Shown: one piece after another, positions 43,691 through 58,468 of the stretch
Numbering within the stretch: the first letter of the stretch is position 1
How the letters are laid out: every line of letters starts with the position of its first letter
NCBI GenBank assembly: GCA_036679645.1
Contig: JAZDCY010000056.1
Span: 1-64,000 of the forward strand
Direction: 5' to 3'
DNA from: Gemmatimonadota bacterium
Lineage (GTDB): Bacteria; Gemmatimonadota; Gemmatimonadetes; Gemmatimonadales; GWC2-71-9
DNA: 64,000 bases
Notes under the pieces: model-generated
Database searches by the model: none
The model's input: the letters and a program-made list of their open reading frames with translations, nothing else
What the model was told of the DNA's origin: nothing
Made by a program: the position numbers and the translations under genes

Positions 43691-44716
43691 CTAGCGCCTA
43701 CTCTGCAGGTATGCGACGAGCGCCGCGATGTCGTCATCGCTGAGCGGGAACTGCGGCATCTTCGCGCCGGGTTTTTCGCCTTTCGGGTTTCCGATCCATC
43801 GGGCGAGACTGGCGGAATCATTGGGCAGTATCCCGGAGGCGATCGTGGTACGCGCCGCGACGTGCCAAAGTGTCGGGCCGAGCACGCCGCCCACGCCGTC
43901 CATCTGATGGCAGGCAATACACGTACGGAAGAAGAGATCCCGACCCGCCACCTGTTGGGCATCCGAAGAATCGAGCGGAACGGTCGCGCCTTGCTGCGCC
44001 ACCCATGCGTCGAAATCCGTGGACGCATCGACCACCACGCGCATCCGCATGTTAGCGTGCGATTCGCCACAGAACTCCGCGCATTGGCCGGCGAACGTTC
44101 CGACGGAGTCCGGTGTGAAGACCAACCGCGTCACCCGTCCCGGCATGACGTCGCGCTTGCCGTGCAACTTTGGAATCCAAAACGAATGAATGACATCCGC
44201 CGACCGCATGACCAGCTCAATCGGGCGGCCCTGCGGTACGTGCAGCTCATTCGCGGTTGAGATGCCCAGGTCCGCGTACTGAAACTCCCACCACCATTGG
44301 TGTCCGATCACCTCGACCTGGAGCGCGTCGTCCGGCGCCCCGCCGTCGATCTCGAAGATCGTCTGAATAGTGGGAACCGCTATGAAGATGAGAATGGCTG
44401 CGGGCGCCATCGTCCACGCGATCTCGGCCACGGTGTTGCCGTGCACGTGCCTGGGTTCCGGTCGGTCGGGCCGGGCGCGGAAACGCACGATCGTCACGAC
44501 GAGCGCGGCCTCGACAACGACGAAGACGACGACCGCCCACCAGAAGATCTGGGTGAACAGCGCATCGATCGCCCTGCCGCTATCGGCAGTGGGATGCAGG
44601 GTGGATTGCGGGAACGAGTCACCGCTGCATGCAGCGGCGCCTAGCATCAGCGCAACCGGAACTAGAAACCGGAGCGCTCGAGCCGCGCGCTTCCAGGGCT
44701 GGTGTCGAATGACCAT
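43691..44716 (-). CDS. ctaC: Cytochrome c oxidase subunit II with fused cytochrome c (caa3-like)
   Basis: QWWWEF, DVIHSF, CAEFCGESHANM (CuA), CIACH heme motif. Confidence 0.95.
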   Translation of the reverse strand: MVIRHQPWKRAARALRFLVPVALMLGAAACSGDSFPQSTLHPTADSGRAIDALFTQIFWWAVVVFVVVEAALVVTIVRFRARPDRPEPRHVHGNTVAEIAWTMAPAAILIFIAVPTIQTIFEIDGGAPDDALQVEVIGHQWWWEFQYADLGISTANELHVPQGRPIELVMRSADVIHSFWIPKLHGKRDVMPGRVTRLVFTPDSVGTFAGQCAEFCGESHANMRMRVVVDASTDFDAWVAQQGATVPLDSSDAQQVAGRDLFFRTCIACHQMDGVGGVLGPTLWHVAARTTIASGILPNDSASLARWIGNPKGEKPGAKMPQFPLSDDDIAALVAYLQSRR

Positions 44717-44909
44717 GTCCCGTGGTTGCCGTTTGCAAATGCGTCCGGTGGCCGTTTGTGGGCCGCCGGACGCCCGCGTATGGTACTCCGGGGGGGCGTT
44801 GGGGTCAACGCGGCGGGTCCTCTTCGGGGGCGCGGGTACAATCAGTCAAGCTGACCAGAGTCAGATAGGCCACGTCCAACATCCCGTCAACCCACACCTC
44901 GCCCAATGG

Positions 44910-45380
44910 ATGGTCAAGCACCCCGATACAGCCCTGACGTGGCCAGCAGATGTGATCGCCCGTCGGCTCGAGCGCATCCTAGAGGACGGCATTATCACTT
45001 CGGACGAACGCGACGACCTCCAGATACTGCTTGGGCAAGTGACCGGGAGCGATGCCGCGAGCGCGGCGCTCGCAAACCGCGCCTCGGGACTGCCACTCGA
45101 CGAACCCGCACCGACCATCGAATTCGAGGGCCGCGCATTCTGCTTCACCGGCAAGTTCTACTACGGCATGCGCCGGAGCTGCCAAGCGGCTGTCGCCGAT
45201 CGAGGCGGGGAATCGCACTCAGGCGTCACGACGAAAACCGACTATGTCGTGGTAGGACTTCTCGGTAGTCGAGACTGGATCCACGCCGGATGGGGAACCA
45301 AGATCGAGAAGGCAATCGAGTACCGGGACAGCACGGGACTGGCGATTGTCGGTGAAGACCATTGGGCAGCCAGCCTGTGA
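44910..45380 (+). CDS. BRCT-domain protein, probably N-terminally truncated
   Basis: FCFTGKF, RGG, VTTKTDYVVVG, WGTKIEKA, IVGEDHW; the frame is open upstream with no clear start. Confidence 0.7.
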   Translation: MVKHPDTALTWPADVIARRLERILEDGIITSDERDDLQILLGQVTGSDAASAALANRASGLPLDEPAPTIEFEGRAFCFTGKFYYGMRRSCQAAVADRGGESHSGVTTKTDYVVVGLLGSRDWIHAGWGTKIEKAIEYRDSTGLAIVGEDHWAASL

Positions 45381-45962: not shown

Positions 45963-46223
45963 TTGGCACGGTCAGCACGGGACTGGTTGGCCATGCTTGA
46001 GGATCGCAAACGCCTGCGATCCTGGCGATACCGTGACTTGCGAGCCGCGCTGACATGTGCGCAGGCAAACCTCGTCTCCGAGAAGGGAAGTCACCGAACC
46101 TACAAGCATGGGGACCACCGTGACCTCGTGACCCTGGTTGACAAGGGGAACGACACCTTACCAATTGGGTACGTCAAGGATGTCGCCAAGCTCCTTCGGG
46201 CAATCGTAGAACAAGAGGCTTAG
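45963..46223 (+). CDS. hicA: HicA family toxin
   Basis: KGSHRTYKH and LPIGYVK motifs; 86 aa; upstream of a HicB-like gene. Confidence 0.75.
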   Translation: MARSARDWLAMLEDRKRLRSWRYRDLRAALTCAQANLVSEKGSHRTYKHGDHRDLVTLVDKGNDTLPIGYVKDVAKLLRAIVEQEA

Positions 46224-46227
46224 GACC

Positions 46228-46548
46228 ATGAAGACCCTTGAAGAGTATCTGGCAATGGATTGGTCTCCGATTACCGACACCGTCCGGGACGGAGACGAGG
46301 TATACGTTCGGCTCCTCGTGCCCGGCGTCCCCGATTTTGTCGTCTACGGCGATAGCGTCACCGAGGTGCAGGATCGCTGGCGCGAAGCTTTTGCCAGCCA
46401 CTTGGCGGGTTATCTAGCTGTGGGGAAAGTGATTCCCGAGCGGTTGGTGATTAAGGAGCTTGTGACCGACCGGTCCGATTCCACCGCTGCGTCGGGAGCA
46501 GGAGAAGCTCAGCCAAGACCGCATCGCGTGGAACTGGTGCCCGCCTAG
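46228..46548 (+). CDS. hicB: HicB family antitoxin, short form
   Basis: KTLEEYL, VPGVP...YGDSVTE, GKVIPE. Confidence 0.75.
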   Translation: MKTLEEYLAMDWSPITDTVRDGDEVYVRLLVPGVPDFVVYGDSVTEVQDRWREAFASHLAGYLAVGKVIPERLVIKELVTDRSDSTAASGAGEAQPRPHRVELVPA

Positions 46549-54503: not shown

Positions 54504-54543
54504 GCGACCGTGGCGGAATTGGTATACGCGCAGGATTTAGGAT
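54504..54543 (+). repeat. Duplicated 5' half of tRNA-Leu (att site, left island boundary)
   Basis: 40 bp identical to 58387-58426, then a degenerate continuation (ctgtggggt). Confidence 0.92.
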
Positions 54544-54669
54544 TCTGCTGTGGGGTAAACCGTCCTCGTCACTACCGGACACCAAGTGACACAATGGACC
54601 ACAGTTACACCCGCATTGGCACCAGTCGAGAACAGCCCGTTTTTCCGTGTCTTACCTCTCGTGTGCGCC

Positions 54670-54692
54670 AGTTCATGGACAGAACGTGGACA
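54670..54692 (+). repeat. 23-bp direct repeat copy 1 (integrase arm-site-like)
   Basis: agttcatggacagaacgtggaca, identical to 58286-58308. Confidence 0.85.
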
Positions 54693-55170
54693 GTGGCCTG
54701 GCAGCTCGGCCGGCGGTCGTTGCAACCGCAGGACGTGGCCGAGTGGGGGAACGGGGTCTATCTTCGCGCAACGGAGAGCTTGGGCTCGTCCGCCAACGCC
54801 AGGAACCGCGTCGATAGAACTGGCCGGGCAGTTGGCGGGCGCCACGTGCCTAACCTCTGGGAACGAGGTCAATGTGATCCACGACGTGGGGCGCTATCAC
54901 ATCGTTGACCCGCGCACGAAAGCCCGTGAAATGGCGACGGGCCTTGTTTGGAGCGAGTTGGTCCCACGAACCCCACCGCGGGGACGAGGCACTCGTGTAC
55001 TCGACGAGCAGCCGCCGTCTCTTACGACCCGTGAGCTTTAGCGGGCGTGTCAAAGAGGCAAGCGACCCCGCAACGTCGCCCCAATCGGCGATGAGCCTCT
55101 TGAGAAATCGGGTTTGATCAGCACGGGTGGGTTTGGATTCTGGGGCGGCGCAATCGGGGCCGGGCTGCTA

Positions 55171-56553
55171 TCAGCGATCCCGCGCGGTCAGCGAGCCTTC
55201 TTTGTGCTGTTTCGGCCAGTAGCGAACGCTCTGCAAGTACTCAGTCGATTCTGCATGCTCCGTGAATTCAAGGAGGTTGCCGAGCTTGGATGTAAGCGCT
55301 GCACGCACCTCACTTGAGCTCGCGAAGAAGAATTCCTTGCGTGCGTTGGCGTGGTTGACTCGCTGATCGGCAAAGTGTTGGTGCAATTCGGATTCGAGGG
55401 TGACGGCATCTTCGGAGAAGAACAGGCAGTGTACATCAAAGCGGAAAGGAACCGATGCACCACTCAGTTCATTGATTCTGTCGAGTGGCTCCAGGCGGCG
55501 GGTTAGGCCGATCTTGACGACGTTGATACCAAACGCGCCCCGGTTCGAAATTACATACACGTAGCCAGCTCTGATGTTAGCCGCCCTGTAATCATTTCGA
55601 GCAATCGCTTCATCGAGATCAGCAAGTCTTTGCTCCAATTCAGCGTCTGATGATCCGCTGCTCTTGAGAGCTTCAAGTGTATTCAAAATGTGGCTGCGCT
55701 CTTTGTCGAGCTTTTCTCGTTCTGCCGTAAGTTCGGCCTGGACCCTCCGCTCCTCGCGGAGGCGCGCGCGCTCTTCACGTGCCTCTTCGCGTTCTTCCTG
55801 CTTCTTCATTAGGTAATCAGCAGTCAATTCGATCTCTTCGACACGTAACGCATGGAATTCGTCGCTGATGTGCATTTGCATCATTTTCCCGAGTTTCATG
55901 ATCGCGGCCCGCGATGCTTCGACCCGCCGCTTCGCCGTGACGACGTTGCCGGCTCGAAGCGAACGCAAGCTATTGTCCACTTCTGCGTTGTACGCGCGTA
56001 ACATTAGCTTGGCGAGGTCATTGGACATCCTGCGGCCTTTGGCAAGCGAATTGTCGAAGGTGAACATGTTCGACCTTTCGATTGCGTGCTTGGCCTTGAC
56101 GAGAGTTGCGATGCGTGTGCCTAGATTCTTGAGCCGATCTTTGTACGCGTCTGCATTCTCAAGCGGGTGGTGGTATCGGTAAATTCCGACTTCTTGAAGT
56201 ACCCATTCGTCGTCAAGCACGACGACTTCACTTGGTGATAAAGTCGCATCAAGCTGAGCCCGCAGTGCGACATTCTCCGCTTCAAGTAACGCGATCCTTC
56301 GTTCGGCATCGCGGGGCACAGAGTCCCCTGAGTGCCCCTCCCCAGTCGCGGACGAAGCGCTCCCTTCCCCAGTGTCGCCCTCCACATGAACCGAGCTCTC
56401 GTCGCTGCTCGAGTCGGTGGATAGCCAAAGTCGCCAGCCCTCAGGTGGATCAGGCCAAGTAGGATCCGGTGTCCACCCCTTTGGCGGCGTCCAGCCGCTG
56501 GGAGGCTTGGGCCAGCCGGGTGGCGGATTGAAGACGATGCGCTCGTCCGTCAT
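55171..56553 (-). CDS. DUF4041 plus GIY-YIG (T5orf172/MUG113) nuclease, SNIPE-like
   Basis: KLMLRAYNAE..KKQEEREE (DUF4041 and coiled coil); AGYVYVISN.GAFG..VVKIGLTRR..SVPFRFDVH..RKEFF; Pro/Trp-rich N-terminus. Confidence 0.88.
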   Translation of the reverse strand: MTDERIVFNPPPGWPKPPSGWTPPKGWTPDPTWPDPPEGWRLWLSTDSSSDESSVHVEGDTGEGSASSATGEGHSGDSVPRDAERRIALLEAENVALRAQLDATLSPSEVVVLDDEWVLQEVGIYRYHHPLENADAYKDRLKNLGTRIATLVKAKHAIERSNMFTFDNSLAKGRRMSNDLAKLMLRAYNAEVDNSLRSLRAGNVVTAKRRVEASRAAIMKLGKMMQMHISDEFHALRVEEIELTADYLMKKQEEREEAREERARLREERRVQAELTAEREKLDKERSHILNTLEALKSSGSSDAELEQRLADLDEAIARNDYRAANIRAGYVYVISNRGAFGINVVKIGLTRRLEPLDRINELSGASVPFRFDVHCLFFSEDAVTLESELHQHFADQRVNHANARKEFFFASSSEVRAALTSKLGNLLEFTEHAESTEYLQSVRYWPKQHKEGSLTARDR

Positions 56554-57812
56554 GAGCGGCGGATTCCCGAAACATCAGCAGCGACGAGGTCAAACGGATT
56601 CTTGGAGACAGCTGCACCAAGGTGACCAAGAGTAGCAGCGGGAACGACGCTCGAAAGATTGAACTCAAGGAACGAATCACGTTCTCCTCCGACCGCCACG
56701 AACGGGATGTACGTCTCCCTGCCAGTCGCCGGGTCGATCGTCTCCGTCCCGACCTCCAACGAGATCGTTTTGATTAGGCTGCGACGGTCTGCCTCGAACA
56801 CCTCATGCAACGACCGAAGCGCGATCTGATGCACCGCGGCTGAATACCGTTCCTTGCACGCTTTCTGTGGTAACGATGTCGAGGTGATTTCATCTGAAGA
56901 TTTGTTGTACTTATAGGCGCGCGTGTCAGGCACTTTGTCAGGGCCAGGTACCAACACGCGCAGCCGCAGCTCAGCCGCAGCGGCATCGAACTCAAAATCG
57001 TGTCGAATCGGAAAATGCGCCGGGTACACCGAGTTGGATAAGACGATTGCCACGTACTCTTGAACCGCCTCAACGGCTCCGTAACCGAGATTGGCGATTA
57101 AAGTATCGATCGCCTGGTTGTGCGCCACGGCCTCTGCCTCACGCGCTGAGCATTCTTCTGCGTATCGCGCCCGCTCTGCCTCAAGTGTCGAAACACGTTG
57201 AGCCTCCGTTTCAGCGTGCCCACTTGCTTCGGCCTTGCGGGCCGATTCGACTTGAACCAACTCGGACTTCCATCTAGCTACGGCGCGCTTGTGAGCGGAA
57301 GTGGCTTCGGCGACCGCCTTCTCATGCTTCTTTTTGCCAAGCAACCGTCGGAGTCCCTTGGGTGCGGGAGGCGGCGTAAATATCGGCTCCGGTGGATCGG
57401 CTTGAGGATTGGGTGGTGGCGTGGGTACCTCGAGGTCGCCGCGGTCGAACGGTGGGTGCTCGGCGACGGTGCGCAGCGTGTCCAAGTCCACGTAGTCATC
57501 TATATCGAGAGTCGCGGCAAGCAACGAATCAATATCGTGATACACTTGGGATAGTTCGAGGTTTTTTTTCTCAACCTCCGCCTCCATCGCGGCAACGTGT
57601 GCTTCTTGAGCTGCTTTGGCGAGTCGTTTTTGTTCTGCCGCATCGGCACGAGTTAACTGAGCAGCTGCACGTTCTTCCGCCTTTCGGGCACGTTCAGCTT
57701 CGGCGCTCGCGGCCTTGCGCGCGCGCTCGGCTTCCCGCTCTGCCCGAGCTTGCTCTCGGTCAGCGAGCTTTGCTTGATGCTGAAGTTCAGCGAAGAAACC
57801 GCGTCGTGCCAT
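56550..57812 (-). CDS. Coiled-coil protein resembling the N-terminal part of long Mrr-type restriction proteins, without a nuclease domain
   Basis: AVQEYVAIVLSNSVYP, QIALRSLHEVFEAD, IDPATG, LGAAVSKNP; ATGA overlap with the nuclease gene. Confidence 0.7.
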   Translation of the reverse strand: MARRGFFAELQHQAKLADREQARAEREAERARKAASAEAERARKAEERAAAQLTRADAAEQKRLAKAAQEAHVAAMEAEVEKKNLELSQVYHDIDSLLAATLDIDDYVDLDTLRTVAEHPPFDRGDLEVPTPPPNPQADPPEPIFTPPPAPKGLRRLLGKKKHEKAVAEATSAHKRAVARWKSELVQVESARKAEASGHAETEAQRVSTLEAERARYAEECSAREAEAVAHNQAIDTLIANLGYGAVEAVQEYVAIVLSNSVYPAHFPIRHDFEFDAAAAELRLRVLVPGPDKVPDTRAYKYNKSSDEITSTSLPQKACKERYSAAVHQIALRSLHEVFEADRRSLIKTISLEVGTETIDPATGRETYIPFVAVGGERDSFLEFNLSSVVPAATLGHLGAAVSKNPFDLVAADVSGIRRS

Positions 57813-58067
57813 CCTTGACCCTTGCTGCGGACTTTAAGATGCGAGCACCCAACCGAGATAGGATGCGATCTTGTCCGGGCCGGCGCCAGGGCATTTCTGG
57901 GGCATGGCATGTTGTTTTTGGGACATCCGGCTGGGAGACTCAACTACCGACCCCATGGGACCCTTGGCGAACGCCTCGGCGTCGTGGCTTGTGACAGTTT
58001 CTGACAGTTCTGGCGGCGGGGCCACACGGCTCGCCATCACGCCCCGCCGCCTTCATCTTTCCCCTCC

Positions 58068-58240
58068 ATGGCGGACTCGCTGGATCGTCTCACTTCGGCG
58101 CTGGCCGACCGCTACCGCATTGATCGCGAACTCGGTAGCGGTGGTATGGCGACCGTCTATCTCGCTGAGGACCTCAAGCACGAGCACCACGTTACGCCAA
58201 GGTGTTGAAGCCCAACCTTCCCCATGCCGTCGGCATCGTC
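58068..58240 (+). pseudogene. Ser/Thr protein kinase N-terminal remnant
   Basis: MADSLDRLTSALADRYRIDRELGSGGMATVYLAEDLKH, then a frameshift to KVLKP; stop at 58208. Confidence 0.82.
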
Positions 58241-58285
58241 AACGAGAGCGACCTAGCGGAGGGTGTGGCGAAGCTTGCAGCCGCG

Positions 58286-58308
58286 AGTTCATGGACAGAA
58301 CGTGGACA
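58286..58308 (+). repeat. 23-bp direct repeat copy 2
   Basis: Identical to 54670-54692. Confidence 0.85.
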
Positions 58309-58386
58309 ATCGGGCGTCGCGGAGGGGTGAGCGTGCAAACGCCGGAGTACAGTAAGTCGGTATGTTGCAATAGAATGTGTAATCAC

Positions 58387-58468
58387 GCGACCGTGGCGGA
58401 ATTGGTATACGCGCAGGATTTAGGATCCTGTGGGGTCACCCATGAGGGTTCGAGTCCCTCCGGTCGCA
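58387..58468 (+). tRNA. tRNA-Leu (anticodon TAG)
   Basis: Acceptor gcgaccg/cggtcgc, anticodon arm cagga-tttagga-tcctg, long variable arm, GGTTCGAGT T-loop; no encoded CCA. Confidence 0.96.

Follow-up and report, generated by a model that had tools for sequence, protein, structure and literature searches.

A nuclease-less module of long Mrr proteins and an anchor-less SNIPE-family nuclease form a conserved two-gene unit

In E. coli, the SNIPE (PD-lambda-1) system is a single protein in which DUF4041, a coiled coil and a C-terminal GIY-YIG nuclease are combined, according to the parts of PMC9519451 and PMC13190303 accessible to us. SNIPE cuts phage DNA on entry, and without its transmembrane (TM) helix it moves to the nucleoid, cleaves host DNA and resisted cloning, as the accessible part of bioRxiv 10.1101/2025.11.03.685801 reports, where chromosome avoidance and switch-on at the injection site are stated to be open questions. 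Of 474 SNIPE homologues, 66% are TM-anchored and 34% have no TM helix, the latter comprising DivIVA-like, PH-domain and other forms (PMC13190303, accessible part). Here, we analysed a window of 64,000 nucleotides from a Gemmatimonadota bacterium (assembly GCA_036679645.1, contig JAZDCY010000056.1, positions 1 to 64,000), in which an earlier note, made from the sequence alone, had pointed out a candidate two-gene anti-phage system on a tRNA island. Gene 2 of this pair encodes a relative of SNIPE and gene 1 a partner resembling long Mrr proteins (Table 1), and the overlap of the two by ATGA that the note had read is borne out by their open reading frame (ORF) coordinates. Our surveys confirmed that a nuclease-less long-Mrr module and a TM-less SNIPE constitute a conserved two-gene unit.

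Starting from gene 1, 81 relatives were found in GTDB genomes and 80 kept, including 69 short forms, 66 of which had downstream DNA; loci L007, L024 and L032 (no downstream DNA) and L067 and L078 (open or fragmentary) were left out of the counts. A SNIPE sequence lies directly downstream in 65 of the 66 evaluable short loci (64 full, one partial near a contig end), leaving L022 as the only one without a neighbouring SNIPE, and none of nine complete long forms fused to Mrr (529-546 aa) has a SNIPE in its locus. Within the gene-1 family, a SNIPE partner and an Mrr fusion are mutually exclusive. Starting from gene 2, we took the 80 top-ranking sequences out of at least 571 relatives from metagenomes and the same number out of at least 589 from viruses (36-49% identity). 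Six of the metagenome loci and one of the viral loci have less than 300 nt upstream and were not counted. Gene 1 stands upstream in all 74 evaluable close metagenome relatives and in none of the 79 more distant viral SNIPEs. The pairing proposed for the one locus, with a TM-less SNIPE in place of Mrr, therefore holds from both directions.

The arrangement of the two genes is likewise maintained, with the 4-nt overlap shared by 45 of the 64 pairs from genomes and by 66 of the 74 from metagenomes, and a spacing within 20 nt in 58 of the 64. To judge from record titles, pairs occur in Actinomycetota, Proteobacteria, Nitrospirota, Planctomycetota and others. The dependency runs one way, since the gene-1 module is sometimes found alone, whereas the partnered nuclease clade never is (0/74). 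In a midpoint-rooted tree, the partnered SNIPEs come out as a single clade with a support of 0.997, embedded among TM-less SNIPEs of actinobacteria, and distances within gene 1 and gene 2 correlate over 21 pairs (rho 0.50, 0 of 2000 permutations). Scanning 120 neighbours of partnered loci revealed no third conserved gene; an integrase, transposase or defence-type gene adjoins 10 of 24 partnered loci, a count based on Pfam names read by eye, with no background control. Among plasmids, 199 records match gene 2 and 20 match gene 1, and a Kocuria rosea plasmid (NZ_CP126484; proteins WP_284563924.1 and WP_284563923.1), from a cultured organism, carries the only short form beside a SNIPE among the matches listed (40 for gene 2, 20 for gene 1). 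On one Planctomycete contig (G1281:C33; L309, L334) the gene pair occurs twice, at a distance of 26 kb, and tandem SNIPE-like genes 1-5 kb apart were seen on G496:C2, G586:C9 and G1174:C9.

Gene 2 consists of a Pro/Trp repeat, an acidic linker, a short coiled coil, DUF4041, a further coiled coil and a GIY-YIG/T5orf172 nuclease. Pfam placed DUF4041 at residues 182-237 and T5orf172 at 330-420, together with MUG113, and the PADLOC PD-Lambda-1 profile matched at E 5e-101 over 90-450, in line with the domain content read in the earlier note. Its statement that gene 2 has no hydrophobic segment proved correct as well, the best 19-residue Kyte-Doolittle window reaching only 1.05. Eight nuclease residues (Y331, Y333, K347, G349, R359, E362, E387 and N403) are invariant in 48 clade members, and Y333, K347, G349, R359, E362, E387 and N403 are common to gene 2 and enterobacterial TM-bearing homologues; judged by position, E387 probably corresponds to the nuclease-site residue E414 of E. 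coli SNIPE. A PDB sequence search with gene 2 gave no match. Compared to E. coli SNIPE, gene 2 differs in lacking a TM helix, in its Pro/Trp N-terminus and in always standing behind gene 1. The repeat does open gene 2, as the earlier note had quoted it, but it is dispensable for pairing: it was detected in 43 of the 64 partnered genes of the genome pairs and in 96 of 105 dereplicated partnered proteins, and it is absent from Nocardia and Mycolicibacterium pairs. The lone SNIPE L084, a close relative, carries both the repeat and an amphipathic motif, and the idea that the repeat defines the pair was rejected. In the ESM Atlas, the repeat had no match at 0.9 or above.

For gene 1, an AlphaFold2 model (pLDDT, the predicted local distance difference test, 91; pTM, the predicted template-modelling score, 0.74; 64 sequences) shows long helices, a Pro-rich linker and an alpha/beta domain. 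Along the chain, helices at residues 6-95 are followed by the linker, an amphipathic basic segment at 151-162, a helix at 160-243 and the alpha/beta domain at about 245-410. No Pfam family was matched at E<=1, hence also no Mrr_cat. The PADLOC profile mREase_IV PDLC03663 matches gene 1 at E 3e-32 over profile positions 19-378 of 544 only, while a full-length relative covers positions 19-536, and Mrr_cat (PF04471) follows the shared part in all seven long relatives scanned. Judged by these matches, gene 1 represents the N-terminal module that long Mrr proteins carry, minus the nuclease: it has their helices, Pro linker, amphipathic segment and alpha/beta domain, and unlike them it has no Mrr_cat. 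This bears out the note's recognition of the C-terminal domain as the part preceding an Mrr nuclease. Its reading of helices, Pro tract and basic amphipathic segment is supported by the model and by the scoring of 11-mers, in which PKGLRRLLGKKK ranked as the top amphipathic-basic stretch. The segment is of the type Gly-Leu-x-x-x-Phe/Leu-Gly-Lys-Lys, stands where the second long helix begins and recurs in 62 of 64 aligned members under a relaxed pattern and in 37 of 64 under a strict one, Mrr fusions included, a distribution by which it is ancestral and common to Mrr-fused forms.

At least 1731 relatives of the gene-1 module exist, and across several phyla, at 39%-79% identity, gene 1 retains a length of about 420 residues and stops at the same point; among 50,697 phage records no match was found. 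Of HHpred and Foldseek, which the earlier note had named as checks, the Foldseek part came back empty for gene 1 at E<=0.001. VIA-align, in which the second of the models used had been predicted alignment-free (pLDDT 58.5), stayed under Z 8 throughout, with type-II KH, ring-building-motif, CDF C-terminal and OsmC-like folds. The PDB sequence search returned one coiled-coil match at E 0.009, the ESM Atlas returned unnamed clusters for the domain, and NCBIfam and PHROGs hold no name for gene 1.

Outside the main clade, a Planctomycete locus (L316; L336:5011-8812) has a module without nuclease directly ahead of a TM-less SNIPE whose N-terminus is rich in Cys, the genes again overlapping. It shares three features with the main pair, namely the lost nuclease, the lost anchor and the gene overlap. 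Its SNIPE is nested among TM-bearing SNIPEs, and the nearest kin of its module are mostly Mrr fusions (44-50% identity). Constraining the partnered sequences to one clade was rejected for SNIPE (log-likelihood difference 244; 57 of 107 rows) and likewise for gene 1 (difference 63, p-AU of the approximately unbiased test 1e-4; 61 rows), where the 2000 replicates were flagged as too few by the program and the gene-1 constraint includes one long-branch member. The trees thus show that the pairing arose a second time, independently, although, with one locus, this could be chance. By our own reading of the ORFs, the L316 pair follows a phage-tail-like cluster. A divergently oriented HsdR N-terminal-like gene adjoins it.

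The missing TM helix is not in itself new, because 34% of SNIPE homologues have none, and the notion that its absence implies a partner was rejected, most lone Gram-positive SNIPEs being TM-less too. In 401 Actinomycetota genomes we found 12 SNIPE matches, nine TM-less and alone and three partnered, one of these three belonging to the centre genome, which had been selected because the pair was present. As a peculiarity of the pair, which the earlier note had taken it for, the lack of a TM helix consequently stands for gene 2 itself, but it does not set the pair apart. In Gram-negative samples, 23 lone full-length SNIPEs have a TM helix. The lone TM-less homologues found here are single genes and mostly carry an amphipathic motif, DUF2510 or DUF4429, none of which is found in the partnered clade nested among them. 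For a closer comparison we used the N-termini of 149 dereplicated proteins, including 36 lone TM-less and 105 partnered SNIPEs, and none of the 105 reaches a Kyte-Doolittle value of 1.6 there. A hydrophobic-Phe-Gly-Lys/Arg motif before the coiled coil, in a pattern written after the sequences had been viewed, occurs in 30 of the 36 lone proteins (12.6 expected from shuffling) and in 4 of the 105 partnered ones (3.0 expected). In a holdout with the pattern fixed, leaving out the fragmentary SNIPEs L290, L302, L306 and L356, it was present in 3 of 7 new lone TM-less proteins, one of them incidental, and in none of 3 new partnered SNIPEs (L309, L316, L337). In Nocardia and Mycolicibacterium, the partnered SNIPEs lack repeat, TM helix and motif alike, but gene 1 is retained. 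Since the pattern is post hoc and its holdout support partial, we regard as suggestive, not settled, the complementarity in which lone TM-less SNIPEs carry the motif, partnered ones do not and gene 1 has a similar segment.

Proteins can be anchored by a short amphipathic helix, as described for MinD residues 254-270 in the accessible part of 10.1101/2023.08.29.555414, and by analogy segments of the Phe-Gly-Lys/Arg type may bind membranes. Many lone TM-less SNIPEs (L085-L092, L199-L278, L349, L360-L362) start with or carry a short amphipathic basic motif, and the plasmid-borne L360-L362 have a similar N-terminal helix by eye. Such motifs may account for part of the 34% of TM-less SNIPEs; the word 'amphipathic' has no occurrence in the supplements of the SNIPE paper (PMC13190303).

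Because the nuclease of the partnered clade appears intact, has no detected anchor and never occurs alone, it would need restraint. We propose, with the balance about even, that gene 1 is a peripheral membrane tether that binds and restrains the gene 2 nuclease, making the pair a two-component SNIPE. Gene 1 would attach to the cytoplasmic side of the membrane via its amphipathic basic segment and bind the anchor-less nuclease directly, tethering would keep gene 2 off the chromosome, and gene 2, held at entry sites, would cut phage DNA during injection; the presumed role of the pair is defence. Several points weigh against such a tether. The Pro/Trp repeat could itself localise gene 2, the gene-1 segment need not serve SNIPE because Mrr-fused forms carry it too, and nuclease-less modules occur without SNIPE (L022, L096, L102-L104). 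Partnered N-termini are Phe-poor by composition, which, like the post hoc pattern and the incomplete holdout, bears on the motif comparison. In addition, the main clade is a single evolutionary event, therefore its 105 sequences do not amount to as many tests, and L316 is the only locus behind the second origin. An unlikely but serious alternative is a sensor-effector or toxin-antitoxin-like arrangement, in which gene 1 inhibits a soluble nuclease and releases it on meeting a phage product, causing abortive infection. The one-way dependency, the gene order with the partner first and a 4-nt overlap, the toxicity of anchor-less SNIPE (bioRxiv 10.1101/2025.11.03.685801, accessible part) and the fusion of the module to Mrr, to Mrr plus TerD or to a DEDDh exonuclease, as for a portable sensor or regulator, all fit it. 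It leaves unexplained, however, why the nuclease should lack the motif in just those cases in which its partner has one, and DUF4041, which engages tape measure proteins in SNIPE (PMC13190303, accessible part), is kept whole. Whether by tether or by inhibitor release, the pair probably acts as one functional unit.

Gene 2 might also localise by itself, via the Pro/Trp repeat or the coiled coil, and work as an ordinary SNIPE, with gene 1 as an accessory adaptor that improves the phage range, perhaps through contact with a host channel or tape measure protein. Lone TM-less SNIPEs are common and the Trp-rich repeat is present in most partnered proteins (96/105), but the Nocardia and Mycolicibacterium partners retain gene 1 while having none of the three N-terminal features and no clade member stands alone (0/74), and both the self-localisation and the adaptor role appear quite improbable to us. 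If this accessory role is included, it is very likely that the two genes function together. The remaining explanation, to which we give little credence, holds that independent genes travel as one cassette and that gene 1 is the remnant of an Mrr, with a function of its own or none. Defence genes do cluster, nuclease-less modules stand alone at the five loci named above, and one gene of the pair is frameshifted at L025, L027, L037 and L062. Decay is hard to reconcile with the length, end and identity that gene 1 maintains over several phyla, and chance co-travel with a preserved overlap, the lack of a third conserved gene and a pairing that arose twice.

Taking the other contexts of the module into account, a wider and rather doubtful extension of the tether model would be that the gene-1 module is a portable platform for membrane tethering and phage-entry sensing, which recruits exchangeable nucleases. 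Mrr, Mrr-TerD or a DEDDh exonuclease would then be attached in cis, whereas SNIPE would be recruited in trans and would have lost its own anchor on capture, which would have taken place at least twice, an idea we hold just as tentatively. Fusions of module, Mrr and TerD of 705-716 aa were found at L107:1405-3522 and L110:1033-3183, and in P0123 (577 aa, a single sequence) the module, 86% identical to that of L316, stands behind a DEDDh exonuclease. If the platform exists, widespread long 'type IV restriction enzymes' would be SNIPE-like entry-site nucleases and not methyl-directed. In the literature searched, no study of the long-Mrr N-terminal module was found, and E. coli Mrr has a winged helix in its place (PMC12707154, accessible part); methyl-directed restriction is for these reasons only a label for the long-Mrr family. 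An unstudied and widespread module is filed by catalogues as type IV restriction through its Mrr domain alone.

PADLOC 2.0 contains no multi-gene system matching both genes; PD-Lambda-1 and mREase_IV matched separately, which agrees with the expectation that the pair is not yet catalogued. Zorya and Kiwa, as described in the accessible parts of the literature, also divide a membrane-side component from a separate DNA-acting effector, but gene 1 is not homologous to their membrane proteins in PADLOC and the pair has no TM helices. PD-T2-1 and Avs8 were rejected as the same system, being set apart by their descriptions (PMC12236752, accessible part). Neither 'Mrr' nor 'two-gene' occurs in the Nature SNIPE text and its five supplements (PMC13190303), and no description of the pair was found in the literature searched, which included accessible parts of PMC9519451, PMC13434031, PMC7159879 and 10.1101/2024.10.22.618286 and covered few subscription journals. 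The pair is real, conserved and apparently undescribed in print. With the nuclease and its likely anchor or restraint as separate genes, the control of SNIPE can be addressed by simple gene combinations, and PD-lambda-1 calls in Actinomycetota and other phyla may overlook a required second gene.

In its host, the pair lies in a 3.8-kb insert at tRNA-Leu. In the same-genus genome G875 the site is empty, the left flank directly joining the tRNA and the next gene; the GC content at third codon positions (GC3) is 0.58 and 0.62 in the pair versus 0.74-0.81 in five host genes; and among 251 genomes of the host phylum the gene-2 family occurs in four, the paired form only in the source genome. Because of the empty site, the deviant GC3 and this rarity, the insert is a foreign acquisition. 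In run X1, which probably represents the source sample, a contig of 3903 nt is identical to 54514-58416, and a contig of run X2, from a separate study, is about 96% alike over the gene junction. Four further short ORFs and a 44-aa stretch of the insert gave no Pfam hit, and the claim that the pair is the only intact cargo of the island holds as far as tested. The 44-aa stretch is the start of what we take, from a recognisable motif, to be a Ser/Thr kinase gene at the right end of the insert, with many similar copies elsewhere in the genome. Within the insert no integrase was seen, and neither a sigma-70 promoter nor a terminator pattern was found.

Table 1. Features of the gene pair and its insert (window coordinates)
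Feature	Position	Strand	Basis or remark
Gene 1 (partner)	56550..57812	-	ORF, 420 aa
Gene 2 (SNIPE/PD-lambda-1 family nuclease)	55171..56553	-	ORF, 460 aa
Stop/start overlap of gene 1 and gene 2, ATGA	56550..56553	-	sequence
PKGLRRLLGKKK, gene-1 codons 151-162, predicted membrane-binding amphipathic segment	57327..57362	-	
Pro/Trp repeat of gene 2, residues 8-44	56422..56532	-	common in clade, pairing does not require it
Left attachment site of insert, 44-nt duplicate of tRNA-Leu 5' end	54504..54547	+	
tRNA-Leu(TAG), whole; right boundary of insert	58387..58468	+	
Broken 5' fragment of presumed host-type Ser/Thr kinase gene	58072..58235	+	similar copies elsewhere in genome

A 27-nt direct repeat (96%) at 54666-54692 and 58282-58308, some 80-120 nt inside each insert end, possibly marks the ends of the element. 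Further upstream in the window, adjoining ORFs of 86 and 106 aa (45963-46548) resemble, by their motifs, a HicA/HicB-type toxin-antitoxin pair, preceded near 44700-45380 by an ORF that we take to be BRCT-like on the same grounds.

Elsewhere, long Mrr forms on plasmids (L338, L339, L340) directly follow AAA or DEAD/DEAH helicase genes in all three regions inspected. The modules L102:1489-2634, L103:661-1968 and L104 form a separate nuclease-less clade with no SNIPE, which looks domesticated; each of the three has an MpaB/Lcp-type oxygenase gene upstream, and a metallophosphoesterase gene follows the module in L102 and L103.

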